A stretch of DNA of 64,000 bases from Planctomycetota bacterium. Its GTDB lineage: Bacteria > Planctomycetota > DG-23 > JAZDKG01. A program made the position numbers and the translations under genes. Shown here one piece after another: positions 1,610 to 33,097 of this stretch. How positions within the stretch are numbered: position 1 is the first letter of the stretch; every line of letters starts with the position of its first letter. The stretch lies in assembly GCA_043803205.1 (NCBI GenBank), contig JAZDKG010000070.1, positions 1,725-65,724 on the forward strand, in the 5' to 3' direction. The notes beneath the pieces are model-generated. The model searched no databases and was not told the origin of the DNA. It worked only from the letters and a program-made list of their open reading frames with translations.

Positions 1610-2113
1610 TCATCGCCGCACGCGCAAGCGGACGGGAACGGCCTCCTCGGCGCGATGGCAATGGCAGATCGCCAGCGCCAGGGCGTCGGCGGCGTCGTCG
1701 GGCTCGGGGACTTGCGCCAGTCCGAGGAGGACGCGGACCATCTCCTGCACCTGGACTTTGTGGGCGCGGCCGTTTCCGACGACGGCTTTTTTCACCCGGG
1801 CGGGCTCGTATTCATAGAGGGCGACACCGGCGTGGGCGACGGCGAGCATGGCCGCTCCGCGGGCCTGCCCCATCACGAGGGCGGTGCGGACGTTTTGTCC
1901 GTAGAAGACATCCTCGATCGCGGCGGCGTCGGGACGCGCCCGCCGGAGGACGCCGGCAAGCTCGCCGTAGAGCTGGACGAGTTTCTCGCAGAACGGCTTG
2001 TCTCGCGGGATCGAGATGGCGCCGTAGTCGAGCGCCGCGAGGCGGTTGCCGCGCTGCTCGACCAGGCCCCAGCCGGTGCGCGAGGTTCCCGGATCGATGC
2101 CGAGCACGCGCAT
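1610..2113 (-). CDS. ruvC: crossover junction endodeoxyribonuclease RuvC
   Basis: 167 aa. MRVLGIDPGTSRTGWGLVE...AAIEDVFYGQNVRTALVMGQARGAAM...DAADALALAICH, the RuvC catalytic D/E/D motifs. Start overlaps the stop of the upstream ABC gene by 1 nt. Confidence 0.85.
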   Translation of the reverse strand: MRVLGIDPGTSRTGWGLVEQRGNRLAALDYGAISIPRDKPFCEKLVQLYGELAGVLRRARPDAAAIEDVFYGQNVRTALVMGQARGAAMLAVAHAGVALYEYEPARVKKAVVGNGRAHKVQVQEMVRVLLGLAQVPEPDDAADALALAICHCHRAEEAVPVRLRVRR

Positions 2114-3942: not shown

Positions 3943-5069
3943 GCTTCTCTATCCAACACCTTGAGGGCCAGGCGGAGCACGGAAGGCGGGTCGATCGCCT
4001 CCATGCAGCGCCGGTCGGAGCAATAGCGCCTGAGGCACGGGGCGCAGTCGAGGTCGGGGGGGCACACCACGTGGCGCCGCTGCCGATAGGGACCGGTCCT
4101 CGCAGGGTCCGTGGGGCCGAAGACGGCGACAAGGGGCGTCGCGAGCGCGTCGGCGATGTGCATGGGGCCGGAGTCATTCGTGAGAAAGAGGTCGGCGTCA
4201 GCGAGCAGCGCGACGAGCTCCTTGAGGGAGGTTTCACCCGCGAGGTTGACGGCGTCGCCCCCCACCCGCGCCCGGATTCGATCCGCCCGGGAGCGCTCCC
4301 TTGCGGTGCCGGCGAACACGACCTTGGCGCGACGCTCGGCGACGAGGGCCCCGGCCACGTATGCGAATCCGTCGATCGTCCACTCCTTCGAGGGCCAGCG
4401 CGCCGCCGGGGAAACCAGCACGAGGGGACGTCGGGCGTCGCGAACGTCGGCGAAGCGCTCCCGCATCCGTCGGCGCGCGTCTGCATCGACGACGATCGGG
4501 AAGTCCACGGAAACGCGCCGGAGGTGGAGACGGTCCGCCAGGAGGAGATAGCGATCGACGGCGTGCATCGGGATGCCCGGGCCGTCCACCCTTACGTTGT
4601 AGAACTTGTGGCTGAGCTCGCGCGCGCTGCGGAAGCCCACGCGGACGGGGGCCCCCGTAGCGTAGCTCATGAGCCCGCTGCGGAAGAGCCCCTGGAGATC
4701 AATCACGAGATCGAAGCCGCCGAGCTCGATCGCGCGGAGGAACCTCCCGAACCCCAGCAGGCTCTCCCAGGCGCGCCGCGTCGAGTCCCAGCGCCCGCGG
4801 TCCCAAGATATCACCTCGTCAAGGGCACCGTTCCCCGCGAGCACCGCTGCGAAATCCTTGTGCACGAGCCATGCGATCCACGCATCCGGGAAGTTGCCGC
4901 GCAGCGCGCCCAGGAGAGGCAGGCTGTGCACGATGTCCCCCAGTGCGCTGGGCTTGACGATCAGGATGCGGCGGATCTCGCGCAGGCTGTGGACCGGATG
5001 CCCGGCGTGACGAAAGCCCTGCCGCCACAGATGCAGGATTCGCTCCTGGTCCACTGAGGCGGCGCTCAT
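3939..5069 (-). CDS. glycosyltransferase family 9 (LPS heptosyltransferase, WaaC/WaaF-like)
   Basis: ILIVKPSALGDIVHSLPLL... and C-terminal TNDSGPMHIADALATPLVAVFGPTDP motif. ORF track extends to 5267. The internal ATG at 5069 (MSAASVDQERILHLW) forms an ATGA overlap with the upstream kinase stop. Confidence 0.75.
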   Translation of the reverse strand: MSAASVDQERILHLWRQGFRHAGHPVHSLREIRRILIVKPSALGDIVHSLPLLGALRGNFPDAWIAWLVHKDFAAVLAGNGALDEVISWDRGRWDSTRRAWESLLGFGRFLRAIELGGFDLVIDLQGLFRSGLMSYATGAPVRVGFRSARELSHKFYNVRVDGPGIPMHAVDRYLLLADRLHLRRVSVDFPIVVDADARRRMRERFADVRDARRPLVLVSPAARWPSKEWTIDGFAYVAGALVAERRAKVVFAGTARERSRADRIRARVGGDAVNLAGETSLKELVALLADADLFLTNDSGPMHIADALATPLVAVFGPTDPARTGPYRQRRHVVCPPDLDCAPCLRRYCSDRRCMEAIDPPSVLRLALKVLDREA

Positions 5070-6703
5070 GAGGCGCGCCTCGCGCGGACGGCGCTCGAAA
5101 GCAGGCTCCACCACCGCTCCAGCTCCGGGCGCGACTGTGCCGCAAGCCCGAGGTAGGCTTTGAGAAAGCGCAGCCCGTCCGTCGTCCGCACGGCGCGCGT
5201 CGAGCGCGCCGATACTGCGAGCCTGGCGAGATCGAGCATCCTGCGTCCTGTCGACAGGCGTCTGCACCGTGAGATTCCGTCCAAGTCGATAAGATACACG
5301 GCCCTGGGCTCACCATCCTCCCGCGAGAGGAGGATGTTGCTCACCTTGAGGTCGCGGTGAGAGAACCCCCTTTCGTGGAGTGAGGCGACCGCGCGGCCCA
5401 AGAGCTCCGCCGCGCAAGCTCCGGCTTTCAGTCTATCCCTTCCGGCGAGATTTGGAAGTACACGGGTGAGAAAGGCATGAAGCTCCCGGGCGTCGGCGAT
5501 GCGCTGCGTCACGACGCCGCTCTCCCGTAGGAGGCCGAGGCGCCGGACCTCCCAAGCGGCTACGGGCATGGCGGTGGGGACATCGCGGACGAAGAGGGCG
5601 TTGGCGAGCCGCCAGCCACGCAGGGCCCTGGAGCGTCGGACGAGATAGCTCAGTGCCCAGCGCGGTCCCTTGTTCTTGTAGCGCTTCACGACGATCTCGG
5701 CGGGGCCTTCGGGGCCGTCGAGGGCGTGAACCTCCACGCGGGTCGTGCCGCCGTCCTTGAGAAGCTTGGCTCCGACGCCGGTCTTCATGAGGGTGAGGAG
5801 CGCATCGCGATCCCATCCCCGGCGCAGGAAGTAGCGTCTGCCATCGAGCCTTCCCGTCTCGAAGTACTTGTTGTTCCGGACGCAGCGGCGTTCGCGGCTG
5901 GACCAGAACGCCTTGCGCCCCGCGAGGCTCGCGCGCTCGATCTCTCTCGGGTCGAGCCCCACGGGATCGGTCTCCTCATATGCGGCGAGGAAGCGTCGGC
6001 GCTGGGTGCGGGTGGTCCATCGGCTCCAGAACCAGTTGAAGACGGCGAGGTTGCGAAGGCGCAGGAGCGCGGGGAGTCCGCCGGGGCGGTCGCTAAGGGA
6101 CACGTCGTGAAGGTCAGTGAGGAAGAAGTCCATGGCGCCCGCGTTCCGGCGGGCGAGGATGTTTCCCGCGTGGAGGTCGCGGTGGAAGACGCCTGCGTCG
6201 TGGACCGAGCGGATGAAGCGGGCGAGCGCCGGCCCCATCTCGCGCAGCATATCGGTCCTATGGCGAGGGGAAGCGCGGGATACGATCACGCTGAGGGGGA
6301 GAGCCCCGTCGATCGCGGCCGTCACGAGGAAGTTCGAGAGGAGCGCCCCGAAGCGCCTGCGCTCCCCCATCGCCAACGGCTCGGGGACGGGGATCCCGCG
6401 CGCGGCGCAGCGCGTCGACACTTCCCACTCCACCTTTCCCGTCGAGGGACGGAAGAGGAAACGGAAGCGGTCCCACCACGTCGGACGCCTGTATTCCTTG
6501 ACGAAGAGGGCGCCGCCGGGGCGCTCCCACCGGTAGACCGCCCGTGCGGGCCCCTCCTTGACAACCTGCGTCGCGCCGTCGCGGGAGAGGTTCTCCCAGT
6601 CGGCGAGGAGGCTGGGGAGCTCCTGGGCGAAGGACGGGACGACGGTCCAGACGACGCCTCCGCGCTTCAGTCGGACGGGTTTGTTCGCCGTCGTGTCTTC
6701 CAC
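5066..6703 (-). CDS. tandem two-domain lipopolysaccharide kinase (WaaP/Kdo kinase family, PF06293-like)
   Basis: 545 aa. Domain 1 has FVKEY lysine and catalytic loop FHRDLHAGNIL. Domain 2 has VVKRYKNKG, SHRDLKVSNILL, and DFG-like IDLDG. Confidence 0.7.
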   Translation of the reverse strand: MEDTTANKPVRLKRGGVVWTVVPSFAQELPSLLADWENLSRDGATQVVKEGPARAVYRWERPGGALFVKEYRRPTWWDRFRFLFRPSTGKVEWEVSTRCAARGIPVPEPLAMGERRRFGALLSNFLVTAAIDGALPLSVIVSRASPRHRTDMLREMGPALARFIRSVHDAGVFHRDLHAGNILARRNAGAMDFFLTDLHDVSLSDRPGGLPALLRLRNLAVFNWFWSRWTTRTQRRRFLAAYEETDPVGLDPREIERASLAGRKAFWSSRERRCVRNNKYFETGRLDGRRYFLRRGWDRDALLTLMKTGVGAKLLKDGGTTRVEVHALDGPEGPAEIVVKRYKNKGPRWALSYLVRRSRALRGWRLANALFVRDVPTAMPVAAWEVRRLGLLRESGVVTQRIADARELHAFLTRVLPNLAGRDRLKAGACAAELLGRAVASLHERGFSHRDLKVSNILLSREDGEPRAVYLIDLDGISRCRRLSTGRRMLDLARLAVSARSTRAVRTTDGLRFLKAYLGLAAQSRPELERWWSLLSSAVRARRAS

Positions 6704-6727: not shown

Positions 6728-8347
6728 CTAGTGTCCCGCGTCTGCGGGGACGGGGGGACGCGGGAAACGGTAGATCACGATACGCTCTTCCGAGGCGCCG
6801 GGATCCTTTCTCTCCCGCACAACGGGCTCCAAGGCGTAGTTCGGGACCGAGTTCGCGAAGTCCGGGATGCACTTGTCGAACTCGTCAAGGTCAACGATCA
6901 GGAATTCATAGGACCCGTCCTGGGCGCGACGCAGGAGGGCGTCGAGGGAGCGGACATCCGAGAGCGCGAGGTCATCAGCGGTCCCCTGGGCGTAGAGGGC
7001 GGCGCGCCCGTCCCGGAAATAGAGGAACCGTTTCCCGGGCCCGAATGTCTCGAGGATCCTACGGCCGGCCTCGCGGTATCCCGAGGTTTCGTGGCGTTGG
7101 AGCTTGAACGCCTGGAAGGAGAGCACCACGACGCAGGCGGCGAGGATCATCCCAAAGACGGTGGCTCTCCGGGCGGGCGTGCCCGGGCTGCGCGACGGAA
7201 GGCCCGTGAGAGCCTTCGTCGCCACGTCGATCCCTCTCGCGGCCCACGGGAGCGCAAGAGCCCCGACAAGGATGAGGTGCCGACTGGAGACGTATCCGAT
7301 GCGGCAGGCGAGAAGGAAGGCAAGGGCCACCGAGATCACGATGACCGCGACGAAGTAGAGCTCCCCCGCACGTCTCCTCCCTTCCCAGATCGCGCCCACG
7401 ACCGCAAGCAAGAAGAGCAGAGGATGCACCGCTTGGGTCACCTGGGAGAGGACGAAGAGAGCCGCAACGGGAAGGTCGCCGCGCAGGCGGACGACGACGG
7501 AGTCGGCGTCCGTCGGCTCCCGGCCGTCGCGGGGGGCCGCCGGAAGGGACTCCACGTCCGGTCGCCCGTTCTCCGGCTGCAACGCGAGGTTCATGGCCGT
7601 TTCACTCATCACCAACGCGGCGAGGGATTTCTTCTTGGAGAGGGTCCAACGGCCGGTGTCACATCGGAGGAACACGAGATAGGGCCCCGCGGCGGCGGCG
7701 AATATCACCGCGCTCATGAGGAGGCAGATCGCTTTGGCGACGACGCGCCCGCGCCAATGCGGCAGGCCCGCCACCGCGATCGCCGACGCGCCGATGATGA
7801 AGACGACGCCGCCCTCCGGACGGGTGAGATAGGCCAGTCCGGAGAAAAGGCCCAGAAGCGCGGCCGCCGCCGCATCGCCGTCGGCGGCGGCGCGGAACCC
7901 GGCGGCGAGGGCCGCCAGACAGAGAAAGACGTATGTCGGCTCGGTGAGGACGTCGGCGCTGGGCCTCGCGAATCTCGGCAGGAACACGAAGAGAAGGCCC
8001 GCCGCCAAGGCGGTCCTTACACCGAAAATCCGCCGAACGAGGAGATACAGCGGGACCAGCGCGGCGACGGACATGGTCAGGCTCACGACCTGCCCGGCGA
8101 CGATCCAGCCGGGGACGGCTAGATGCGCGACCACCACCAAGAAGGGGTAGAAGGGATGCTGAGCGTGCGCAAGGAAGACGCCGACGCGTCCGGCCGCGAA
8201 GGCCCGGGCCATCTCCAGGAATCCGACTGCGTCCTTGGCAACGACGACCACGCGCTCGAAGAGCACGATGCGCGTCGCGATCGCCAGCGCGACGAGAAGG
8301 AGGAACAGCACAAGCTCGCGTCTCGGCGACGTCTCCTCATTCAACAA
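6728..8347 (-). CDS. GT-C fold membrane glycosyltransferase, ArnT/PMT-like (GT39/GT83-type)
   Basis: 539 aa. About 11 N-terminal hydrophobic helices, first-loop AKDAVGFLEMARAF, C-terminal soluble domain. The architecture resembles ArnT / protein-O-mannosyltransferases. Confidence 0.45.
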   Translation of the reverse strand: MLNEETSPRRELVLFLLLVALAIATRIVLFERVVVVAKDAVGFLEMARAFAAGRVGVFLAHAQHPFYPFLVVVAHLAVPGWIVAGQVVSLTMSVAALVPLYLLVRRIFGVRTALAAGLLFVFLPRFARPSADVLTEPTYVFLCLAALAAGFRAAADGDAAAAALLGLFSGLAYLTRPEGGVVFIIGASAIAVAGLPHWRGRVVAKAICLLMSAVIFAAAAGPYLVFLRCDTGRWTLSKKKSLAALVMSETAMNLALQPENGRPDVESLPAAPRDGREPTDADSVVVRLRGDLPVAALFVLSQVTQAVHPLLFLLAVVGAIWEGRRRAGELYFVAVIVISVALAFLLACRIGYVSSRHLILVGALALPWAARGIDVATKALTGLPSRSPGTPARRATVFGMILAACVVVLSFQAFKLQRHETSGYREAGRRILETFGPGKRFLYFRDGRAALYAQGTADDLALSDVRSLDALLRRAQDGSYEFLIVDLDEFDKCIPDFANSVPNYALEPVVRERKDPGASEERIVIYRFPRPPVPADAGH

Positions 8348-18742: not shown

Positions 18743-19819
18743 ATGCATCAAGTGACCCTCATTCCGGGCGACGGAACCGGTCCGGAAATAGCTGAGGCGG
18801 CGCGGATGCTTGTCGAGGCCGCGGGCGTCGCCGTGAACTGGGACGTCCAGTCCGCGGGCTTGGCCACGATGGAGACGGAGGGCACGCCCCTGCCCGACAG
18901 GGTCCTCGACTCGATCCGTCGGACGGGCGTCGCGCTCAAGGCCCCCATCACCACCCCGGTCGGAACGGGGTTTCGCTCCGTCAACGTTGCGCTCCGGCAG
19001 ACGCTGGACCTTTACGCGTGCCTGCGCCCGTGCAAGGTGTACAAGGGCGTGCGGTCGCGATACGAGAACGTAGATCTCGTCGTGGTCCGCGAGAACACCG
19101 AGGATCTCTACGCTGGGATCGAGTTCGCGCGGGGGGCGGACTCCACGCGGAAGCTCTTGGCTGCGCTCGAGGAGCTCCAGAGCAAGGTGATCCGGGAGGA
19201 CTCCGCCGTCAGCATCAAGCCGATCAGCGAGTACGCGTCCCGGCGGATTGTCACGTTCGCCTTCGAGTACGCGCGCTCCGCTAAACGCCGAAAGGTCACC
19301 GCCGTTCACAAAGCCAACATCATGAAATACAGCGACGGCCTGTTTCTGGAGACCGCCCGCGCGGTGGCCTCGAGCTACGGCGACGTCGAGTTCGAGGATC
19401 GCATCGTGGACAACATGTGCATGCAGCTCGTGCAGCGGCCCGAGGCGTACGACGTCCTCGTCATGCCCAACCTTTATGGCGACATCGTCTCGGACCTGTG
19501 CGCGGGGCTGGTCGGCGGCCTGGGGGTTGCGCCGGGGGCGAACATCGGAGACCGCTGCGCCGTCTTCGAGGCGACGCACGGCAGCGCGCCGAAATACACG
19601 GGCCTCAACAAGGTGAACCCGACGGCCCTCGTGCTGTCGGCGGCGCTGATGCTGCGACACATCGGCGAGAAGGACGCCGCCAACCGCTTGGAGGCCGCCG
19701 TCGCCGAGGTCATCGCCGAAGGCAAGCACGTAACGTACGATCTCAAGGCAAACCGCGACGATGCTTGCGCCGTGGGAACCCGGGAGATGGCCCAAGCCAT
19801 CGCGCGGCGGCTTCGCTGA
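18743..19819 (+). CDS. isocitrate/homoisocitrate dehydrogenase family (NAD(P)-dependent beta-decarboxylating dehydrogenase)
   Basis: 358 aa. [13 protein letters not shown]...[14 protein letters not shown]...[19 protein letters not shown]. Confidence 0.75.
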
Positions 19820-20954
19820 ACAAAGGCACTTCCAGCACGGTACGGAGCGCAAAGCGTTGCGGGGACTTTCGAGCGGACGCGCTTTCTATCTCGACGCCAT
19901 CGCGGGCAAGCGCACCGACGGCGCGGCGCGCGCGCTCATGTCCTTCCTGGTTCCGCTTTCGCGGATCTACGAGGCGGCGATCCGCCGGCGGAACCTCTCC
20001 TTCGACCGCGGACGGGCCGTTGCATCCCTGGAGATCCCGGTCCTCTCCATCGGCAACATTACCGTGGGAGGAACGGGCAAGACGGTCCTGATCGAGGACC
20101 TAGCCCGCAGGTTGCTCAGACTGGGACTGCGACCTCTCATCGTGAGCCGGGGCTACAAGGGAGATTCGGGCGGGAACGACGAGTTTCAACTCCTCGCGGA
20201 AAACCTGCCCCACGTCCCGCACGTCACGGGGAAGAAGCGCATCAAGGCGGCACACGAGGGGATCACGGCCCACCGGCCGGACGTCATTATCCTTGACGAC
20301 GCCTTCAGCCATCGGGGGCTCGCGCGCGACCTCGACATCGTGACGATCGATGCGCTGTGCCCGTTCGGTTACGGGGCGCTTCTGCCGAGGGGCCTGCTTC
20401 GCGAACCGCCGGAGGAGCTAGCGCGCGCGGACCTCGTCGTCCTCACGCGCAGCGACCTCATCCGAGAGGAGGATCGTCAGGCAATCGAAACGGACCTCGC
20501 CAGGCTTTCCGGGAAGGCCGCCGTCATCGAGGCCTTCCATGATCCATGGCGCGCGGTTGACATTATGAACTCGCGCGAGGTAGATCACCGAACTCTCGCA
20601 GGGACACCGAGTTACGTGTTCTGCGCAATCGGGAACCCCCAGGGCTTCAAGCTCACTGTCGCAAAGCTGTCCATCCCCGTCGTCGGGGAGACCTATTTTA
20701 TTGACCATCATCGGTACACGCCCGGGGACCTGCGGGCGATCGAAGTCGAGGCGTGCGCGCGAGGCGCGCGGTGCTTGCTGGTCACCCAAAAAGACAGGGT
20801 GAAACTCACGCGCATCGGATATAATTGGCGACTGCCGATTCGCAGCATCGACGTCCGTATGGCGTACCTTTCAGGCGAGGAGATCCTGGAGGAACGGATC
20901 GCCGGCGCCGTGGCGCGCGGGGGGCGCCGGGCGCAGCCAGCGCGCCATCCCTGA
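19761..20954 (+). CDS. lpxK: tetraacyldisaccharide 4'-kinase LpxK
   Basis: [15 protein letters not shown]...[26 protein letters not shown]...IVSRGYKG. Start uncertain: ATG 19761 overlaps icd by 59 nt. Alternatives are TTG 19857 or ATG 19938. Confidence 0.7.
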
Positions 20955-20967
20955 GGAGCACCCCGAC

Positions 20968-22464
20968 TTGACCAGTCGTTCCCATCTGCGACAGATGATC
21001 GAGAAGCTCGGCAAGCCCACCGTGCTCGTGATCGGCGACTTCATCCTGGACCGTTACATCTGGGGACGGGTGGACCGGATCAGCCCCGAGGCCCCCATCC
21101 CCGTCCTTGCTGCCGAGACCGAAGAAGAGCGCCCGGGGGGTGTCGGGAGCGTCCTCAACAACTTGGCGGCGCTGGGCGCGAAGTGCAGGGCGATCGGTGT
21201 CGTCGGGGATGACGAGGAAGGCCGACGGTTCCATGGTCTGCTCGACGCGGCGGGGCTGTCGGGCGCATGCGGGACCGTGTTCACGGACCCGCGCCGGCGT
21301 ACCACCGTGAAGACGCGCCTCATCGCGAAGGTCCAGCACCTCCTGCGCGTGGATCAGGAACACACCCATCCCCTCGACGGCGAGCTCGAGCAGGCGCTCA
21401 TCGCCCGGGCCCTAGCGCACATGGACGACAGCGACATCATCCTTGTGAGCGACTATGGGAAGGGGGTCGTCTCGGCGGCGGTCATGGAAGCCGTCGTGTC
21501 GAGCGCCCGACGGCGCGGTCTCAGGGTGATCGTAGACCCCTGGCGGGGACGCGACTACGCCCATTACCGGCGCGCCACCGCGGTCACTCCGAACCGCAAC
21601 GAGACCCAGATCGCGACGGGCATCCGTCTCGAGGCGACCGATGCTTACGAGAAGGCCGCCCGCAGGCTCATCCGCGAATACGAGCTCGATGCCGTCGTGA
21701 TCACCCTTGACAGGGACGGGATCTACTGCGCCGAAGGGTCTTCGCCGGGGCGGCTCATCCCCACGCGGCCGCGCGCCATCTTCGACGTCACCGGCGCTGG
21801 CGACATCGTGCTGAGCGTTCTCGGGGTGGGACTGGCGAGCGGGCTGGATCTAGAGAGCGCGGCGGAGCTGGCGAACCTAGCGGCCGGGGTGGAGGTCGAG
21901 AAACTGGGGGCGGCCCCCGTCTCGATCTGTGAGATGCTCAACGCCGTCTCGGATTCGCCGCACCACGCCAGGGCGAAGGTCGTGAGCGAAGAGGAACTCC
22001 TGTCCAAGCTCGCGGAGCACCGTCGCCGCGGAGAACGGATCGTGCTGGCAAACGGGTGTTTCGACCTGCTGCACGCGGGGCACGCGGAGTTTCTAGCGTT
22101 CGCCCGCCGGCAGGGGGACACACTCGTCGTGGCGCTCAACTCCGATTCCTCGGTGGCGGGCCTCAAGGGGCCCGACAGGCCCTTTCAATCCCAGTCCGAA
22201 CGGGCTAGAATACTTGCGGCATTGGGCGACGTGAATTACGTGGTCGTCTTTGACGAGCCGACCCCGGAGCGGATCGTGCGCAGCGTGAGGCCCGATGTCC
22301 TGGTCAAGGGCGAGGACTGGCGCGAGCGCGGCGTGGTCGGAAGGGAGTTCGTGGAGAGCTACGGCGGGACGGTGGTGCTGGCGCCTCTGGTCGAGGGCGT
22401 GTCGACCACGCAGATCGTGTCCAGCATCCGGCAGGGAGGCGGCGGCGTCCGGGAAAGAACATGA
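20968..22464 (+). CDS. hldE: bifunctional D-beta-D-heptose 7-phosphate kinase / D-beta-D-heptose 1-phosphate adenylyltransferase HldE (RfaE)
   Basis: 498 aa. N-terminal pfkB kinase (LVIGDFILDRYIWGRVDRISPEAPIPVL, GAGD). C-terminal cytidylyltransferase (IVLANGCFDLLHAGHAEFL). Confidence 0.85.
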   Translation: MTSRSHLRQMIEKLGKPTVLVIGDFILDRYIWGRVDRISPEAPIPVLAAETEEERPGGVGSVLNNLAALGAKCRAIGVVGDDEEGRRFHGLLDAAGLSGACGTVFTDPRRRTTVKTRLIAKVQHLLRVDQEHTHPLDGELEQALIARALAHMDDSDIILVSDYGKGVVSAAVMEAVVSSARRRGLRVIVDPWRGRDYAHYRRATAVTPNRNETQIATGIRLEATDAYEKAARRLIREYELDAVVITLDRDGIYCAEGSSPGRLIPTRPRAIFDVTGAGDIVLSVLGVGLASGLDLESAAELANLAAGVEVEKLGAAPVSICEMLNAVSDSPHHARAKVVSEEELLSKLAEHRRRGERIVLANGCFDLLHAGHAEFLAFARRQGDTLVVALNSDSSVAGLKGPDRPFQSQSERARILAALGDVNYVVVFDEPTPERIVRSVRPDVLVKGEDWRERGVVGREFVESYGGTVVLAPLVEGVSTTQIVSSIRQGGGGVRERT

Positions 22465-23075
22465 GCGAGGAACGAATCCAAGCCATCGTGAACGAAGCGG
22501 TCGAAGTCCTTCGCGCGATCGACGCCGCGCAGGTGAAGGCGATCCGCTCGGCCGCGGACGCGATAGTCAAGGCGCTGCGAAGGGACCGTCGGGTCTACAT
22601 CCTGGGGAACGGCGGAAGCGCCGCCGACGCGCAGCACTTCGCAGCCGAGCTCGTTGGAAGGTTCCGCATGGACCGCAAGGCTCTACCCGTGACGGCGCTG
22701 ACCACGGACACGTCGATCCTGACGTCGATCGGCAACGACTACGGGTACCAGTGCATCTTCAGCAAGCAGGTGGAGGGTTTCGTGCACCGGGGGGACGTGG
22801 TGGTGTGCATCTCGACGAGCGGGAACTCGCCTAACGTTGTGGCGGCCATGATGATCGCCCGGGAGCTGGGGGCGACGACGATCGGGCTCGCGGGCCACGA
22901 CGGCGGAAAGATGAAGAGCTTGTGCGACGTCTTGGTGAGCGTTCCCGCGGAATCGACCGCGCGGGCGCAGGAGGCGCACGGCGTCGTCATCCATGCGATC
23001 TGCGAACTCGTCGAGGGCGAGATCTTCTCCCCCCAGCGGAGGGGGAAAACGGGCAAGGCTTCCAACGGCCGGTAG
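22461..23075 (+). CDS. gmhA: phosphoheptose isomerase GmhA (SIS domain)
   Basis: 204 aa. YILGNGGSAADAQHFAAELVGRF...CISTSGNSPNVV. ATGA overlap with hldE. Confidence 0.85.
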   Translation: MSEERIQAIVNEAVEVLRAIDAAQVKAIRSAADAIVKALRRDRRVYILGNGGSAADAQHFAAELVGRFRMDRKALPVTALTTDTSILTSIGNDYGYQCIFSKQVEGFVHRGDVVVCISTSGNSPNVVAAMMIARELGATTIGLAGHDGGKMKSLCDVLVSVPAESTARAQEAHGVVIHAICELVEGEIFSPQRRGKTGKASNGR

Positions 23076-24645: not shown

Positions 24646-25700
24646 TCGGCCCCATCCGGACGATCCTCATCCGCTCTCCCAACTGGGTGGGCGATTGCGT
24701 CATGGCGACTCCGGCGCTGGCGGCCTTCCGAGACGCCTTCCGGGACGCGACGATCCTGCTCTTGGCCCCGTCCTATACGGCCGAGGTGTTCGAAGGGGGC
24801 GACTGGTTCGACGAGCTCCTGGTTGTGCCAGGGAGTCGAAGCCTCGGGGCTTTTTTGCGCGCGGTGCAGACCGCAGCGGCCCTTCGCCGCCGACGGGCGG
24901 ACCTCGGCATCCTCATGACGAACTCCCTGGGAAGCGCGGTCCTCATGAAGCTCGCCGGGGCGCGCAACATCGTGGGGTACTCCCGCAACGGTCGGTCCGC
25001 GCTCCTCACCACGGCTCTAGCACCCGCGCGCACGCTCGGGGGATTCGTCCCCGGTCCCATGGTTGATTATTACCTGGAACTCGCCCGGGCCGTCCGTCGT
25101 AGGACTGACGGGACGGAGGATCGGAGAATCCGCCTTGCCACGACGCCCCGAGAAGAGGAGGCGGCTCGCACGCTCTGGGAGCGACTGGGTCTGGGATCGA
25201 GACGAGTGGCGGGGCTCAACCCCGGGGCGGCCTTCGGCAGCGCGAAATGCTGGCCTCCCGCGCACTTCGCCGCTCTCGGGCGGATGCTGGCGGAGCGATC
25301 GGGGCTCGACGTCCTCGTCCTCTGCGGACCGGCCGAGCGGAGCGTCGCCCGCGCGATCATAACCGAGGCCGGGCACCCGGCAGTGAGGGGTCTCGAAGGG
25401 GAAGACGTCCCCCTGGGGGTCCTAAAGGCCGTGGTGCGGCGGCTCGCGCTGCTCGTGACGAACGATTCAGGCCCGCGTCACTTCGCGTGCGCCTTCGCGG
25501 TCCCGACCGTCACGGTTTTCGGTCCGACCGACGAACGGTGGAGCGAGACGGCCCGAACGGACGAAATAAAGATCGTGCGCGACCTCGCGTGCAGGCCCTG
25601 CATGAGACGCGTTTGTCCCACCGACCACGCCTGCATGCGCTCCATCGAACCGGAGGCGGTCTACGAGGCCGCTACGGAACTTCTCAAGGGACACAGATGA
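24642..25700 (+). CDS. glycosyltransferase family 9 (heptosyltransferase, WaaF/WaaC-like)
   Basis: MIGPIRTILIRSPNWVGDCVMATPAL... and TNDSGPRHFACAFAVPTVTVFGPTDERW. ATGA overlap with the rSAM gene. Confidence 0.75.
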   Translation: MIGPIRTILIRSPNWVGDCVMATPALAAFRDAFRDATILLLAPSYTAEVFEGGDWFDELLVVPGSRSLGAFLRAVQTAAALRRRRADLGILMTNSLGSAVLMKLAGARNIVGYSRNGRSALLTTALAPARTLGGFVPGPMVDYYLELARAVRRRTDGTEDRRIRLATTPREEEAARTLWERLGLGSRRVAGLNPGAAFGSAKCWPPAHFAALGRMLAERSGLDVLVLCGPAERSVARAIITEAGHPAVRGLEGEDVPLGVLKAVVRRLALLVTNDSGPRHFACAFAVPTVTVFGPTDERWSETARTDEIKIVRDLACRPCMRRVCPTDHACMRSIEPEAVYEAATELLKGHR

Positions 25701-26707
25701 ACGAAGGACTCAAGCGCGTCGTCCGGCGATTCCCAAAGGCCCGCATCGCTGTCGTGGGCGACTTCGTCGCGGACCTGTATGTGCACACCCGTCCCCGCCG
25801 CTTGAGCCGCGAGGCCCCCGTCATCATCTGCGAGTATGAGGGCGAGGAGATGGTCGCCGGGAGCGCCGGGAACACGGCGGCGAACGCGCTGGCGCTCGGC
25901 GCCGGCGTGCGCTGCATCGGGATCATCGGCGACGACGCGGAAGGACGGGGGCTGGCACGCCTGTTGAGGAGAGAGGGCGCCGACACCCGGGGGCTCCTAC
26001 GCGCCCGTAACCGTCCAACTACCACGAAGACGCGCATCCTGGCCGGCGACCTGCACACGATCAAGCAGCAGGTCATCCGGATCGACCGCCACAGCGTGCG
26101 CGGGGCGACGGCCGCGCAGGAACGCACGCTCACGCGTGCGCTGGCGAGAAGCGTGCCGCGCGTCCAAGCCGTCATCGCCAGCGACTATGACGACAGCACC
26201 CTCACGCCCGAGGTGATCTCCGTCCTGTGCGCGCACGCGGCGCGCCTCCCCCTCGTCGTGGACAGTCGCGCTCGACTGCGGCAGTTCGCAAACGCCTTTG
26301 TCGCGACTCCCAACGAGACGGAGGCGCTCGAGCTCACCGGCATGATCCCGCGGACGCGGGGAACGGCGCGCGACCTTGCGCGCCTCGGGGAGCGCCTGCG
26401 GGGCGCGCTCCGGGCCCGGCACATCCTGCTTACGCGGGGAAACCAGGGCATGGTCCTCTACGAGCAAGGCCGCGCCCCCTACATCATCCCGATCGTGGGG
26501 AGCACGGACATCGTGGACGTGACCGGGGCGGGGGACACTGTGGCGGCGGCGTTGACGCTGGCGATCGTAAGCGGGGCGTCGATGCGTCAAGCCGCATGGA
26601 TCGCGAACTGCGCGGCGGGGGTGACCGTGATGAAGCCCGGCGCCGCCGCCCTCACGCGGCGGGAGCTTCTTGACGCGATCGAGAGCGCCGGCCCCATAAG
26701 GACGTGA
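25697..26707 (+). CDS. pfkB-family sugar kinase, RfaE domain-I / HldA-like (heptose 7-phosphate kinase paralog)
   Basis: [26 protein letters not shown]...[13 protein letters not shown] overlap with the GT9 gene. Confidence 0.7.
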
Positions 26708-26711
26708 CGAC

Positions 26712-27236
26712 ATGGCGCGCTTCGTCCGCTCGCACGCGGGTCTTCGTCGGATCCTGGACCGCCACCGCCGGAACGGCGAACGGATCGTGATGGCGAACGG
26801 CTGCTTCGAGCTCCTTCACGTGGGACACATCCGCTACCTCGAGGCGGCGTCGCGCCTCGGCGACATCCTCGTCGTGGCGGTGAACACCGATGCGAGCGTG
26901 CGTCAGCTCAAGGGGAGGGGTCGTCCGCTCGTGGACCTGGCGGAGCGCGTGGAGACGCTCCGGGCTCTGCGCTGCGTGGACTACGTCACGGCGTTCGGCG
27001 GGAAGACGTGCGACGCGCTCTTGAGCACGATCCGGCCCGACGTGCACGCCAAGGGAACCGACTACGCGACCGACACTGTTCCGGAGCGCAAGACCGTGCG
27101 CGCGTACGGCGGCAAGACCGTCATCGTCGGCGATCCCAAGCGGCACTCCGTGACGGACTTGATCCGGAGGATCGGGTCGCTCGGCGTCGAGGCGCGCGGC
27201 CGCCCCGTTAAGCGTCGCCCCCGAAGGAAGGCATGA
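26712..27236 (+). CDS. cytidylyltransferase-like, RfaE domain-II / HldC-like (heptose 1-phosphate adenylyltransferase paralog)
   Basis: [19 protein letters not shown] (HxGH)...VAVNTDASV...CVDYV, 174 aa. Confidence 0.75.
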
Positions 27237-29725
27237 AGACCACCAAGATCATCTTCAATGGCCGCACCGAGGGCCTCTTCCGCGGCGCTGGTCTCTCGAC
27301 CGCCGAGGATTTTTTACGCTCGCCCATGGAACGAGTGACCGCGCGCTCCATCGAGTGGACCACGGGCGACCTCACGCCGGCGGGGATGTCCGCAACGTTC
27401 GTCCTCAAGACATTCTTCCCCGTGCGTCCCTGGCGGATGGGCGGGAGGGACCGCTGTCCCTGCCTTCGGGAGTACGCCAACCTGCTCTATCTCCTCGAGG
27501 CGGGCGTCGGCGTCCCCGAGCCAGCGGTCGCCGGCCACGAGGTCGAGGATGGAAGACTCGTCGGCTCCTTCCTCGTGACCGAGAAGCTCTACGACGCATC
27601 GCCCTGGCCCGTGCCTTTCCGGAGCCGCACGGAGCGACTCGACGCGCTGCGCGTCCTGGGCCTCACCATAAAGAGGATGCACGAGGCGCGCTTTCATCAC
27701 GGGGACGCCCTCTTCTGCAATATCCTGTGGCGCGTCCCGCAGACGCGGGACGGACCGTCGTGCTTCATCACGAACTGTCCCCGCGGCAAGTCCATCCGAA
27801 GGGACCTCAGCGAAGGGGAGCGCGCGGACGACCTGGGGGCGCTCCTGGTCGATGCGGGGCGGGCGCTTACGCGGACGGAATGCCTGAGGATCCTTCTCCA
27901 CTACCGGGGCGAGGGCGGGCTCGACGCGGCGTTTGCGAAGAAGGCGCTTGCGGCCCGTCGCGCGCGCATCCTCCGTCGGGCGCGGGTGTTCCTACGCGCC
28001 GACGCCCTCCCGGGGATGCCCATGTCGTTTCAGGCGCCGCCCGACACGCTTGTCTCCTTCGACGACGCGATCCTTCACGAGCTCAACGTCCGCAAGCTGG
28101 CGGATTTTGAAACGCTGCGCCGCCCGCCCGGACGGGAGGTCGTGTCGGGGCGAAGACCCGTCTACCGCCTGGAGGGGCGACCGGGCAAGGAGGACCTCTT
28201 CGTCAAGGTGATCGGCGCGCATGCGCTCAAGGAGAAGCTCGCGGCGTTTTTGCCGACGCTCGCATCCCGCACGCGGGCGCTCAACGAGTGGTTCGCCCTT
28301 CACGCAGCCTTAGGCGCGGGGCTTCGTGTGCCGCGACCCCTGGGGATCGTGCAGCGTCGTTCCAGGGAAGCGCCCATCGAATCGATCCTTGTCACCGCCG
28401 CCCTGCCGGAACGCGCCCGTCGGCTCGATCTCTTCCTCGACTCGCTTGGCGACGGGCGGGGGGCAGACCTTGCATCTCTCTGGCGGGCCATCGCCGTAGC
28501 CGTCGGGAGGCTCCATGCCGCCGGTCTCGTCCACAACGAGCTCTTTGCCAAGCACATCTTCGTCAGCGCCGCGCCGGACGCGCGTCCTCCCTTCCGTTGG
28601 GAGGTTCACTTCCTCGACCTCCAGAACGCGCGCGTGCGACGCGCGACGGCACTGCGAGCGCGGGCGCGGGACCTGGCGGCGCTGCGTGCGAGCGTGCCGC
28701 CCTTTATTCTTCCGACGACGGGCTGGAACGAGTTCCTGCGCTCCTACGTCGCGTCCTGCCCGCCGGATGTACGCTATCCCGCGCTCCGCAGAGCCGTGGG
28801 GAGCGCCCAACGGAAGCTCGGAGCCAACCGTCGGGTCACGCGGATGCTCTACGAATGGGCCGATCCCGCGACTGCGGGACCGCAGGCGCGACTTCCTCTC
28901 CGGGAGAGCATCATCCAGGTCTCCGAGAGCCTGCGCGAGCGGCTGCTCGTCCACGCGGATTATGCCCAAGCCTTAGCGGACGCGGGCCTGGCAACTACGC
29001 TGGATTTCCTCTACTGCGAGGGGTCGGCCATCCGCGCCAAGGAGAGCCGGTCGATCTCGCGGCTCACCCTCAAGACGGGGGAGCGATCGGTTCCGCTGTA
29101 TCTGAAGCGTCACGAGGGCCAGACCCTCGGGCAGGTCCTCGCCGAACTCCTGCGCACCGGCCGGATCGAAAGCCCGGGGCTCCACGAAGCGGCCAACATT
29201 CAGCTCCTGCGCTCGCGGGGGATTGCCGCCCCTATCGTGGTCGCGGCGGGAGAGGAGCTTAAGCCCTTCTGGACGAGGCGGTCGTTTCTTCTCACGGCGG
29301 CGCTGGAGGGCGCACGCCCCCTCGACGATTTCTTTCGGGAGAAGAGCGCGCAGGCGCCACGTCTCAAGACGAAGATCATCGACCATCTTGCGCGTTTAGC
29401 GCGGCACCTTCACGCGTCGGGGTTCCACCATCAGGACTTCTACCTCAACCACGTTTTCATCCGCCCGGACGAGAAGCCGGAGCTCATCCTCATCGATCTT
29501 CAGCGCATGTACCGCCGACGGCGGCTCCGGCGGCGGTGGATCATCAAGGACCTCGGGCAGCTCAACTACTCCGCGGACCGGGCAGAGCTTAGCCGCGCCG
29601 ACCGCCTGCGGTTTTTCAAGACGTACCTCAACGCAAGCTACCTTTCCCGCGCGGACAAGCGGTTTCTTACGCGCATCCTTCGCAAGACATCCCGCATCAT
29701 CCACCATACCGGCTTCGGACAATGA
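27233..29725 (+). CDS. triple-domain lipopolysaccharide-kinase-like protein (three tandem WaaP/Kdo-kinase-family domains with variant catalytic loops)
   Basis: 830 aa. Domain 1 has FVLKTF lysine and [12 protein letters not shown] loop. Domain 2 has LFVKVIG and [12 protein letters not shown] (Asp to Asn). Domain 3 has LYLKRHEG and [12 protein letters not shown], with ILIDLQ. ATGA overlap with the upstream gene. Confidence 0.65.
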
Positions 29726-30965: not shown

Positions 30966-31619
30966 TTGTCGGCGACACTCTACACCGCCATCTGCATGAT
31001 TGTCTCCTACCTCTGCGGGGCGATCCCGTTCGGCCACCTCGCAGGCAGGGTCTTCGCCGGCATCGACATACGGGAACAGGGGAGCCGGAACCCGGGCGCC
31101 ACAAACGTATTGCGCGTTGTCGGCCTGGGGCCTGGGCTTCTGGTACTCGCACTCGACGCGCTCAAAGGCTTCATCCCGGTGATATTGTCGCGAGTATTCG
31201 CGGACACGATCGGGGACGGGACGGGGACGGAGCTTGTGATGGTCCTGTCGGCGGCGGCCGCCATCTTCGGACACATGTTCTCCATCTTTCTCTTAGGCCG
31301 GGGCGGAAAGGGCGTCGCAACGGCGGCGGGCGCGTGCCTAGCGATCATCCCCGCCGAGACGGCCATCGCGCTGACGGTGTGGGGGGGAACCGTCGTCGCG
31401 TCCCGGTACGTCTCCCTGGGGTCGATGTGCGCCGCGGTCGCACTGGGCGTGTCGCTCTTTTTCCTGGAACGGGACCTCTTCAGCACACGACTCCCCCTGC
31501 TCGTTTTTGTGCTCGTCCTCTGCGCCCTCGTGATCGTGCGCCACCGCGCGAACATTCGCAGGCTTCTCAAGGGCGAGGAGAACCGCCTGTCGTTCTCATC
31601 CCGGAAAGGCTCCCCATGA
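30966..31619 (+). CDS. plsY: glycerol-3-phosphate acyltransferase PlsY (acyl-phosphate dependent)
   Basis: SATLYTAICMIVSYLCGAIPFGHL...SRNPGATNVLRVVG matches PlsY N-termini. TTG start at 30966 with GGAGG 9 nt upstream. Track ORF starts at ATG 30894, overlapping the GT4 gene. Confidence 0.7.
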   Translation: MSATLYTAICMIVSYLCGAIPFGHLAGRVFAGIDIREQGSRNPGATNVLRVVGLGPGLLVLALDALKGFIPVILSRVFADTIGDGTGTELVMVLSAAAAIFGHMFSIFLLGRGGKGVATAAGACLAIIPAETAIALTVWGGTVVASRYVSLGSMCAAVALGVSLFFLERDLFSTRLPLLVFVLVLCALVIVRHRANIRRLLKGEENRLSFSSRKGSP

Positions 31620-33097
31620 AGACGTCGCGCGCCGTTTTCCGCTCGTTCTCCGTCGTGTTGCTGCTCGCATCGGTGTGCGGGCCGGCGCTCGCAGAAAGGA
31701 GGACAGAGATGTCGCCCATGGAACTTGTCGAGCTTATCCTCAGCGAGACAGAGCCTCTGCAGAGGGATCGCGGGGACCGCCTTCCCCTGATCCATTGGCA
31801 CGCGCGCGCGCTTGAGGCCGACGACGCGCGTCTCGAGGAGATCATCCGCGACCTGGACGCGCGCGGCATCGGGTTCTTCAGCCTCTGGGAGACGGGAACG
31901 AGCAGGGAATCGTCGCTCGCGCTGGCGCTGCGTGTCGCCGCCATTCAGAAAAGGCTCGGCCTCCCCGTGATCGTCTTCGCCAACGGCCCGATGCACATGT
32001 TTTTCAACGGCGAGGAGAGCACCGCCCACGTGGACGACGAGGGCAAGCCATTCTTCGACGACTCTTTCGGCGGGACGAAGATGGGCTGTCCCTTTGCACT
32101 CGAGCAGCGCATCGCGCCGATGAGGAAGGGGATGGAGTCCTTCGTTCAGGCTTACGTCGAACGAGACCTCCCCATCGACATCGCGTTCGCCGACTGGGAG
32201 ATCGACGGCCCCATCGAGTGGAATGACGCTTGGAAGAACTCGAAGCGTTGCCGGCGCTGCCGGGAGCATATCCCCGACATCGACGACTTCGCCGCCTTCC
32301 AAAAGGCGCTGCGCGCCATCCGCAGCAGGCTTCAGAAGGAGGTCTTAGCCGAGCCCATCCTCTCGGCGTTTCCGAAAGCCCTTGTCGGGAACTACGGTGT
32401 CTACCCGAACGACGGCTATCGGTACTGGCTGGACTACTACGAACACGAGGACTTCCCCGAGGGGGTGGCGCTCAAGACGGACGGCGGCGCCCGCTACCGC
32501 CCGTGGGCGGACGAGTTCAAGGACACCGGCTTCACCTTCGCGATGCCGGTCGTCTACACGTGGTCCCGGTGCTACCGCTGGTATGACGACGAGAACACGG
32601 ACTGGCGATGGTTCACCAACATGCTCCTCAACGCGACCAACGCGGGGAAGAGCACGTCGCCGAACATCCCCATCATCAGTTGGATCCACCACGCGATCAT
32701 CTGGGAGTCCGGGAAGAGCTCCGAAGACGTGGTCCAGTTCAGCACGGAGAAGTACAAGGAGCTTCTCTGGCACATGCTGCTGCGCGGGTGTGACGCCTTC
32801 GCTCTCTGGTGCACGAACCAGGAGGTCGACTTCGAGACGCGGCCGCTGCACGAGGTCTACGCCGAATCCCTCGAGTGGCGCGAGTTCCTCGACCGAGGCC
32901 AACCGGTCTCTTTCGAGGTGCCCCGCGGGGCGGGCCCCGTGGTGTCGGGGCTGCGGCTCGGGGACCGCATGCTCGTCCGAAGGACGGATTTCGGAGACCC
33001 TTCAGCGCCCGCTTCGATCACCGTCGGGGGAAAGACGCTTCCCGTCCCGAGCGCGCCCGGGGTCTGCCGGGTAATCGGCCTCTCCAGCAGTCCATAG
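31616..33097 (+). CDS. secreted/periplasmic hypothetical protein with signal peptide
   Basis: MKTSRAVFRSFSVVLLLASVCGPALAE signal peptide, 493 aa, W/Y/D-rich, no motif recognised. Start reset from 31334 (ATGA overlap with plsY). Confidence 0.5.
   Translation: MKTSRAVFRSFSVVLLLASVCGPALAERRTEMSPMELVELILSETEPLQRDRGDRLPLIHWHARALEADDARLEEIIRDLDARGIGFFSLWETGTSRESSLALALRVAAIQKRLGLPVIVFANGPMHMFFNGEESTAHVDDEGKPFFDDSFGGTKMGCPFALEQRIAPMRKGMESFVQAYVERDLPIDIAFADWEIDGPIEWNDAWKNSKRCRRCREHIPDIDDFAAFQKALRAIRSRLQKEVLAEPILSAFPKALVGNYGVYPNDGYRYWLDYYEHEDFPEGVALKTDGGARYRPWADEFKDTGFTFAMPVVYTWSRCYRWYDDENTDWRWFTNMLLNATNAGKSTSPNIPIISWIHHAIIWESGKSSEDVVQFSTEKYKELLWHMLLRGCDAFALWCTNQEVDFETRPLHEVYAESLEWREFLDRGQPVSFEVPRGAGPVVSGLRLGDRMLVRRTDFGDPSAPASITVGGKTLPVPSAPGVCRVIGLSSSP

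Follow-up and report, generated by a model that had tools for sequence, protein, structure and literature searches.

A three-domain WaaP-family protein from a Planctomycetota lipopolysaccharide operon, with one predicted active kinase domain and two probably non-catalytic ones

We analyzed a 64,000-nt stretch of DNA from a Planctomycetota bacterium (contig JAZDKG010000070.1 of assembly GCA_043803205.1), referred to below as the window, which holds two genes encoding tandem copies of a lipopolysaccharide (LPS) kinase domain, the Kdo/WaaP domain (PF06293; Kdo, 3-deoxy-D-manno-oct-2-ulosonic acid). An open reading frame (ORF) at 27233-29725 on the forward strand encodes a protein of 830 amino acids (aa) with three such domains, and an ORF at 5066-6703 on the reverse strand, with a GTG start, encodes a protein of 545 aa with two. 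The 830-aa protein is probably a fusion of three paralogous WaaP-family modules, with one active kinase at its C terminus and two modules that have been retained without catalytic function. An earlier reading of the letters and ORF translations alone (the sequence-only reading) had proposed that the concatenated modules form a multi-site phosphorylation machine for core heptoses. For the 830-aa protein this proposal is not supported, as the residues essential in Pseudomonas aeruginosa WaaP are kept in one of its three domains. Judging from their residues, multi-site phosphorylation is plausible for the 545-aa protein and for those relatives in which all domains are intact.

RESULTS

Five Kdo/WaaP domains in two proteins

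The two genes and their parts lie at the following positions of the window (strand in brackets).

27233..29725 (+): 830-aa gene, three WaaP-family domains (PF06293, structure model)
27233..28006 (+): 830-aa protein domain 1, aa 1-258; kinase fold like that of WaaP, with a degenerate active site (predicted pseudokinase)
28007..28132 (+): junction of domains 1 and 2, aa 259-300, ending ...LADFETL; best-conserved segment of the 830-aa protein
28016..28843 (+): 830-aa protein domain 2, aa 262-537; WaaP-type, ATP-site residues present, catalytic residues gone
28901..29722 (+): 830-aa protein domain 3, aa 557-830; WaaP-type heptose kinase domain, predicted from its residues to be catalytically intact
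5066..6703 (-): 545-aa two-domain kinase paralog gene (PF06293)
5867..6649 (-): 545-aa protein domain 1, aa 19-279; HRDxxxxN-type, core catalytic residues all present
5081..5842 (-): 545-aa protein domain 2, aa 288-541; recurrent 'K-[AG]-HRD-K-N-D-G' class, most similar to the models for Kdo kinase and Bud32

PF06293 matched three stretches of the 830-aa protein (215 bits) and two of the 545-aa protein (114.7 bits). When the domains were scanned singly, those of the 830-aa protein scored 44.7, 70.2 and 107.8 bits in order and those of the 545-aa protein 53.7 and 64.4 bits. The gathering score of the family is 21.3 bits; all five domains exceed it and are members of PF06293, which confirms the three-plus-two count of the sequence-only reading. 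A six-frame scan of the window, whose GC content is 65.7%, with a family hidden Markov model (HMM) found no further kinase-family domains. Weak matches to Bud32, RIO, APH and Pkinase models were obtained with the 545-aa protein and also with the 830-aa protein.

More specific models did not assign a function to any single domain. The 830-aa protein is 100% identical to a protein from a Planctomycetota metagenome-assembled genome (MAG) at NCBI, where it is named 'lipopolysaccharide kinase InaA family protein'. This name is a generic family label; on the InaA model NF007383, whose cutoff is 235 bits, the whole protein scored 36 bits and domain 3 scored 25.3 bits. On the NCBIfam RfaP equivalog NF011703 the whole protein scored 174.2 bits against a cutoff of 170, passing solely through the summing of its three domains, and domain 3 alone stayed under the cutoff at 125.5 bits. 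Summed domain scores of this kind are a general annotation trap for multi-domain proteins. On the KdkA model NF002475 the best score, 55.6 bits for domain 2 of the 545-aa protein, was also under the cutoff (142 bits).

Fold of the repeats

The whole 830-aa chain was modelled with AlphaFold2 (AF2) from a 10-sequence alignment, with a mean predicted local distance difference test (pLDDT) of 86.4 and a predicted template-modelling score (pTM) of 0.78. The order of strands and helices in the model is repeated three times, and its best match in the PDB was P. aeruginosa WaaP (6DFL), with a template-modelling (TM) score of 0.80 normalized to the target; PRPK/Bud32 and RIO1 ranked after it. Domain 1 was modelled separately because its sequence signal is the weakest of the three; the model (pLDDT 86, pTM 0.83) again had 6DFL as its best match (E=4.5e-13), and PRPK/Bud32 and RIO1 came next. 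The fold of domain 2 is read from its Pfam match and from the AF2 model, where its strands and helices follow the same order, and domain 3 matched the WaaP of 6DFL by sequence at E=5e-19. The sequence-only reading had allowed that the repeats might lack a kinase fold; according to these models they are genuine WaaP-like kinase folds.

Active sites compared with that of WaaP

In P. aeruginosa WaaP the ATP-site pair is K51 and E78, the 'HRD' motif is H161-R162-D163 and the equivalent of 'DFG' is D188-L-H, with H168 replacing the usual Asn as ligand of the second Mg2+ and with Y165, H168 and R191 listed as substrate-binding residues (PMC6147952). There was no growth of P. aeruginosa with the WaaP variants K51A, H161A, D163A, Y165A, H168A, D188N and R191A, while R162A had a mild effect only, R162 being dispensable (PMC6147952). 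All domains were aligned to an HMM built from 45 single-domain relatives. Read in the order K51-E78-H161-R162-D163-Y165-H168-D188-R191, the alignment gives the following signatures.

E. coli WaaP (reference): KEHRDYHDR
830-aa protein domain 3: KEHQDYHDR (K625, E652, H733, Q734, D735, Y737, H740, D755, R758)
830-aa protein domain 2: KEHNEFHDN (with E436, F438, N465)
830-aa protein domain 1: KEHGDLNNR (with L160, N163, N181)
545-aa protein domain 1: KEHRDHNDD (K69, E92, H174-R175-D176, N181, D197)
545-aa protein domain 2: KGHRDKNDG (K340, H449-R450-D451, N456, D473)

The lysine motif that the sequence-only reading saw in all five domains falls in one invariant column of this alignment (K59, K325 and K625 in the 830-aa protein; K69 and K340 in the 545-aa protein). 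The catalytic loops lie at aa 155-163, 433-441 and 732-740 of the former and at aa 174-181 and 449-456 of the latter.

Domain 3 carries the complete set of residues that are essential in P. aeruginosa WaaP, with Q734 at the position of R162, and is by its residues a canonical WaaP domain. Its loop, HHQDFYLNH, had been taken for non-canonical; it is a normal WaaP loop that aligns column for column with NHRDCYICH of WaaP. Among the basic residues of WaaP that contact acyl carrier protein (ACP), three of the four covered in one pairwise alignment stay basic in domain 3 (R221, R226 and R229), and the R222 position is Ala.

The other two domains of the 830-aa protein do not have the WaaP residue set. 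Domain 1 has L160 in place of Y165, N163 in place of H168 and N181 in place of D188. It is by its residues a pseudokinase, because Asn181 occupies the position of the metal-binding Asp, a replacement (D188N) that WaaP function does not survive. The sequence-only reading was correct that the loop of domain 1, HHGDALFCN, retains its Asp, and overlooked the loss of the metal-binding one. Domain 2 has E436 at the D163 position, F438 at that of Y165 and N465 at that of R191, and retains K325, E352, H434, H441 and D462. From this combination we infer that its activity is lost or strongly reduced, although it may have kept nucleotide binding. Its loop, VHNELFAKH, had been described as having Asp replaced by Asn and a downstream His as a further defect; the residue at the catalytic position is actually Glu436, and the His is the norm in the WaaP family. 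The broader expectation that at least one domain is probably a pseudokinase agrees with Asn181 of domain 1 and with E436, F438 and N465 of domain 2.

Both domains of the 545-aa protein apparently are active, as they have the classical Lys, HRD, Asn and Asp set. Their loops, HRDLHAGN and HRDLKVSN, had rightly been called canonical.

Retention of the degenerate domains in orthologs

Relatives were collected in an exhaustive HMMER search, which returned 3962 matches at E<=1e-3. HMMER was used since a word-indexed protein search, with 2 matches for the single protein and 6 for a 10-sequence profile, was too insensitive. Three relatives are collinear with the 830-aa protein over their full length at 45-49% identity, namely P0002 (858 aa), P0003 (851 aa) and P0004 (875 aa), and these were aligned with the window protein to give the set called the four orthologs below. 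At 45-49% protein identity synonymous sites are saturated; consequently, per-domain amino-acid identity was used in place of the ratio of nonsynonymous to synonymous substitution rates (dN/dS).

The motifs of domain 3 are invariant across the four orthologs. In domain 1 the D188 position is N/T/N/H and the lysine position K/T/K/R. By its residues this domain is dead in all four, since the metal-binding Asp is absent from each and the lysine is not conserved. In domain 2 the catalytic position is E/G/D/D and the R191 position N/G/R/R; the domain is intact in P0003 and P0004 and degenerate in the window protein and its closest ortholog. Compared in pairs, the four are on average 38% identical in domain 1, 40% in domain 2 and 53% in domain 3; in the junction of domains 1 and 2 (aa 259-300) the value reaches 65%, the highest of any segment of the protein. 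The identity of the degenerate domains, that of the junction and the high pLDDT together argue that these domains are retained as structural modules and are not freely decaying.

The operon of the 830-aa gene

The 830-aa gene lies in an LPS inner-core operon with the following neighbours.

19761..23075 (+): LpxK, bifunctional HldE-like protein and GmhA (SIS); Pfam, NCBIfam HldE 452.6 bits; same order in L008 and L009
23137..27236 (+): B12-binding radical S-adenosylmethionine (SAM) protein, glycosyltransferase family 9 (GT9) heptosyltransferase II, HldA-like PfkB kinase and HldC-like adenylyltransferase; syntenic in L008-L010 and L007
29759..30934 (+): glycosyltransferase family 4 (GT4) protein, 33-nt gap after the 830-aa gene; Pfam, syntenic in L008

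The full order is LpxK, HldE-like, GmhA, B12/radical-SAM, GT9, HldA-like, HldC-like, the triple kinase, GT4 and PlsY. The GT9 protein scored 148 bits on the heptosyltransferase II model, over its cutoff, and the two genes that precede the triple kinase scored 266 bits on rfaE_dom_I (HldA-like) and 170 bits on rfaE_dom_II (HldC-like). The ATG of the 830-aa gene overlaps the stop codon of the HldC-like gene (ATGA at 27233-27236) and is preceded by a GAAGGAAGG ribosome-binding site. This confirms the coupling into a heptose operon after HldA/HldC that the sequence-only reading had pointed out, as does, for the second locus, an ATGA before GT9. Around the ortholog P0151 the operon is reproduced gene for gene with one extra glycosyltransferase family 2 (GT2) gene, its order is conserved in L008-L010, and the gene of P0002 likewise has a cytidylyltransferase gene before it, with which it overlaps.

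Kinase genes of this family also occur unfused side by side. Locus L001 has three single-domain kinase genes, and L003, from Nitrospirota, has two adjacent ones with a 4-nt overlap. L002, from Phycisphaeraceae, encodes a two-domain protein that joins a 'KAHRDKNDG' domain to a WaaP domain. A fusion of neighbouring paralogs is suggested because unfused neighbouring kinase genes, as in L001, L003 and P. aeruginosa, are the pattern expected of it.

In the window the next gene after the triple kinase encodes a GT4, and in E. coli the GT4 gene waaG lies immediately before waaP and overlaps it. In Planctomycetes bacterium DG_23 (L004, 8801-10825) a GT4 is fused N-terminally to an intact WaaP domain in a protein of 674 aa; compare L011, 9154-11068. 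This fusion and the adjacency of the genes in the window and in E. coli suggest that the GT4 and WaaP steps are functionally coupled.

Other features of this locus were observed in passing. The genes of ADP-heptose activation are present in two sets, one HldE-like plus GmhA (20968-23075) and one split into HldA-like and HldC-like genes (25697-27236), a duplication that is conserved in the ortholog locus L008 (1807-3915 and 6508-8004). Both sets score under the NCBIfam equivalog cutoffs, and one of them may activate a different sugar. The B12-binding radical SAM gene between GmhA and GT9 (23137-24645, forward strand) keeps its position in L008 (3954-5462). Its best NCBIfam matches, far below cutoff, were radical SAM enzymes of the C-methyltransferase/cyclase type, and the protein may modify a sugar or lipid.

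The locus of the 545-aa gene

The second locus lies on the reverse strand in the order PMT_2, double kinase, GT9 and MsbA-like exporter.

6728..8347 (-): PMT_2 (ArnT/GT39-like) membrane glycosyltransferase, upstream of the 545-aa gene; PF13231, 36.7 bits
2113..5069 (-): GT9 heptosyltransferase (3942-5069) and MsbA-like ABC exporter (2113-3942), downstream of the 545-aa gene

The 545-aa gene ends in a TGA that shares nucleotides with the ATG start of GT9 (ATGA at 5069-5066), and its GTG start at 6703 is preceded by a 24-nt gap and a GAAGGAAGAGG ribosome-binding site. Planctomycetes bacterium DG_23 has the same order of double kinase, GT9 and ABC exporter, and its 562-aa kinase protein aligns collinearly with the 545-aa one, the two being 33% identical. 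Two metagenome scans were made with the 545-aa protein, of which the first was without matches and the second returned the DG_23 contig only. The PMT_2 protein, which had no NCBIfam match, hints at modification of lipid A or core at the periplasmic face.

Two ORFs that flank the LPS loci have no Pfam match and a coding-like codon-position GC content; one encodes a hydrophobic, multi-pass membrane-like protein of 582 aa (9762-11510, forward strand) and the other a protein of 492 aa (31619-33097, forward strand). The reverse strand from about 35200 to 63700 carries short ORFs with high GC at third codon positions together with ORFs of 1397 and 818 aa, and looks like a cluster of ribosomal-protein and RNA polymerase subunit genes.

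Multi-domain relatives

In order to see how domains are arranged in relatives, domains were counted in the 150 best-scoring cluster representatives, with clusters formed at 50% identity. Since the summed score used to rank this list favours multi-domain proteins, the list gives at least 75 multi-domain clusters and not a frequency. One domain was found in 75 of the representatives, two in 57 and three in 18. Among the 75 multi-domain proteins, 72 end in a domain with the complete WaaP signature (54/57 with two domains, 18/18 with three). With A for an intact domain and x for a degenerate or fragmentary one, the patterns are as follows.

Two-domain proteins: AA 38, xA 18, xx 1
Three-domain proteins: AAA 2, AxA 10, xAA 3, xxA 3

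The 830-aa protein of the window is xxA. It thus falls in the tandem kinase-pseudokinase class, in which a kinase is joined to a degenerate domain and which accounts for 18 of the 57 two-domain and 16 of the 18 three-domain relatives. P0009 and P0015 are the three-domain proteins in which every domain is intact. The upstream domains fall into three groups: intact WaaP-like domains (KEH[PT]DYHDR), a 'KAHRDKNDG' class and degenerate domains. Domain 2 of the 545-aa protein belongs to the 'KAHRDKNDG' class, as do domains in L002, L004, P0040, P0060 and P0072. Outside the orthologs, domain 2 of the 830-aa protein is closest to the N-terminal domains, themselves intact, of certain two-domain proteins; one of these proteins, P0006, aligns collinearly to aa 304-826 of the 830-aa protein. 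A separate three-domain family of about 865 aa is found in Gemmataceae.

Kinase domains are also fused to other enzymes, namely to GT9 (953 aa, Planctomycetota), to GT4 (674 aa, DG_23) and, by the source names, to a lauroyltransferase or a Kdo transferase. The source names of the relatives are generic ('heptose I phosphotransferase', 'Bud32', 'InaA family', 'hypothetical').

As a side observation, the P0022 cluster (953 aa, Planctomycetota) and P0039, P0053, P0065, P0118 and P0134 have lengths of 920-956 aa, of which about 350 aa form an extension ahead of two kinase domains. One member of the P0022 cluster is named 'lipopolysaccharide heptosyltransferase II' by NCBI, which by name makes it a GT9 fusion. 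In five of these six representatives the first kinase domain is without the catalytic Asp (Q, E or A instead), another kinase-pseudokinase arrangement.

A multi-domain architecture is therefore not rare in the WaaP family. The sequence-only reading did not recognise the architecture as described, and we too found no paper that describes it; the rarity it implied is wrong, as 75 of the 150 best cluster representatives have several domains. It had itself allowed that fusions of two or three domains might be common and annotated, and this is largely the case, under generic names only. Our literature search, which left out most subscription journals, found no published description of tandem or pseudokinase proteins of the WaaP/Kdo family or of LPS core kinases of Planctomycetes. 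The family and the pathway are known, and the fused, partly degenerate architecture is plentiful in databases and appears to be unexamined.

DISCUSSION

Proposed role of the two proteins

We believe that the 830-aa protein arose by fusion of kinase modules that elsewhere are separate neighbouring genes of the core operon. Domain 3 (aa 557-830) would be the sole enzyme remaining in it in this lineage, dependent on ATP and Mg2+ and using the WaaP mechanism. From its residues and its neighbours we infer that it most likely acts after the adjacent GT9 and phosphorylates an inner-core heptose on the cytoplasmic side of the inner membrane. Domain 1 presumably has lost the ability to bind the catalytic metal. 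Domain 2 would keep the Lys, Glu and Asp of the ATP site without the catalytic base and two substrate-site residues. Both are predicted to be packed against the active domain, where they probably serve stability, binding of a substrate or partner, or regulation. The 545-aa protein, with its two apparently active domains of other subclasses, probably adds further core phosphates on Kdo or a second heptose. Together the two proteins would give the window about three working LPS kinases.

A more specific version, that the degenerate domains are under selection as non-catalytic modules which regulate or position the active kinase, maybe by holding the lipid A-core acceptor, acyl-ACP or the HldC, GT9 or GT4 protein, we regard as possible but less probable than not. 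If true, such modules would be a bacterial glycolipid-kinase counterpart of the eukaryotic kinase-pseudokinase tandems, widely recurrent in Planctomycetota and other uncultured Gram-negative bacteria.

Several points weigh against the account of one active and two retained domains. The inactivity of domains 1 and 2 is deduced from residues that were tested in a protein of about 25% identity. Domain 2, with its Lys, its Glu and the Asp of DxQ, might keep a weak or altered activity, because Glu sometimes substitutes for Asp as the base. The exact substrate and position of domain 3 (HepI O-4) are putative, since it scores 125.5 bits against the 170-bit RfaP cutoff. The compact packing of the domains in the model is judged by the pTM alone, and the estimate of how frequent such proteins are is biased by the summed-score ranking of the list of 150.

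Alternative explanations

If all three domains of the 830-aa protein were active, it could be a multi-site and possibly processive heptose phosphorylation machine. This is improbable in our view, although domain 2 keeps K325, E352, H434, H441 and D462 as well as an acidic Glu436, P0003 and P0004 have an intact domain 2, P0009 and P0015 have three intact domains, and the heavily phosphorylated cores of P. aeruginosa need three to four kinases. Domain 1 has Asn at the metal-binding position, where D188N abolishes WaaP function; among the four orthologs its lysine varies (K/T/K/R) and the metal-binding Asp is found in none. Domain 2 has lost the equivalents of D163, Y165 and R191 together, each of which is essential in WaaP, and the Gly at its catalytic position in the closest ortholog points to relaxed catalytic constraint. 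A somewhat better case can be made, though we still think it unlikely, for the degenerate domains having gained another activity or ligand (ADP-heptose, acyl-ACP, a lipid A-core intermediate or a non-kinase nucleotide transfer) that couples the kinase to HldC, GT9 or GT4. They are conserved and well-folded modules (pLDDT about 85-90, 38-40% identity) with a highly conserved junction, the gene is translationally coupled to that of HldC, the fusions of relatives' kinases to GT4, GT9 and an acyltransferase indicate physical coupling of steps in core assembly, and the WaaP of known structure uses its C-terminal subdomain for tight binding of acyl-ACP (PMC6147952). However, no new conserved motif was identified in domain 1 or 2, and their former catalytic positions vary among the orthologs without converging on a new pattern.

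There is very little likelihood that the two proteins are kinases of proteins or other small molecules that merely lie near LPS genes. The weak Bud32, RIO, APH and Pkinase matches, chiefly of the 545-aa protein, would fit such kinases, and no single domain reaches an NCBIfam equivalog cutoff. However, domain 3 has WaaP as its best match in both sequence and structure and keeps the equivalents of the substrate-site residues Y165, H168 and R191, and both genes overlap, start to stop, with heptose-pathway or heptosyltransferase genes in operons that are conserved across genomes. We rejected on ortholog evidence the idea that the long ORF is an artefact of MAG assembly or a frameshift that merged three adjacent kinase genes, and we give it practically no weight. 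The window does come from a MAG, and separate adjacent kinase genes exist elsewhere. Against this, four independent assemblies (NCBI, JGI, ENA) have collinear, uninterrupted ORFs of 830-875 aa with 45-49% identity and conserved junctions, and the P0003-type gene was found on six contigs, the three of which that were read being from three different samples. Codon-position GC is also uniform across the 830-aa gene, and AF2 predicts a compact multi-domain fold. A fusion of WaaP-family modules with a single active C-terminal kinase remains the account we prefer.

Significance

Phosphorylation of the LPS core stabilizes the outer membrane; it is essential in P. aeruginosa, where WaaP is an antibiotic target. 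To our knowledge, what is known of core kinases derives from a small number of Proteobacteria, whose enzymes have one domain each. Among Planctomycetota and other uncultured lineages it is routine for core kinases to be joined to one another and to GT4, GT9 or acyltransferase domains, and the fused copies often lose catalysis and yet persist. The natural series from all-active through partly dead proteins to those with one active domain offers a handle on non-catalytic kinase folds and on coupled steps of core assembly. We consider the advance incremental and not transformative, as none of the family, the chemistry and the pathway is new and neighbouring genes of an operon often fuse in evolution.

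Comparison with known systems

Domain 3 shares with WaaP (6DFL) its fold (TM 0.80) and all essential residues, including the family-specific His for Mg2+. WaaP is a single domain of about 265 aa, whereas domain 3 makes up the C-terminal third of a chain of 830 aa. The locus of the 830-aa gene resembles waaG-waaP of E. coli in being an inner-core operon with a GT4 neighbour; E. coli has two LPS kinases, WaaP and WaaY, compared with the about three proposed for the window. KdkA and WaaY belong to the same PF06293 superfamily. Domain 2 of the 545-aa protein, with an HRDxKxxN / DxG pattern, scores best on the KdkA model but far under its cutoff, and can be assigned to neither function. E. coli WaaY was too divergent to align to the WaaP-derived domain HMM, and no domain was assigned to the WaaY type.

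Eukaryotic JAK JH2-JH1, GCN2 and plant tandem kinase proteins likewise combine active and non-catalytic kinase folds in one chain. The likeness is one of analogy only, as those are signalling protein kinases whereas the window protein is a predicted glycolipid kinase in an envelope-biosynthesis operon, with no specific homology; JAK matches to the 830-aa model in Foldseek had TM scores of 0.13-0.17.

A parallel in gene content is found in P. aeruginosa, where waaP, wapP, wapQ and PA5006, three LPS kinase genes and a putative one, lie in one operon (PMC3147165). There, as in the window, paralogous WaaP-family kinases stand together with heptosyltransferases in a core operon for multiple phosphorylation of the inner core (PMC3147165). 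In P. aeruginosa, however, these are four separate genes, whereas in the window the modules are fused in a 3+2 arrangement and two of the five lack some of the catalytic residues.

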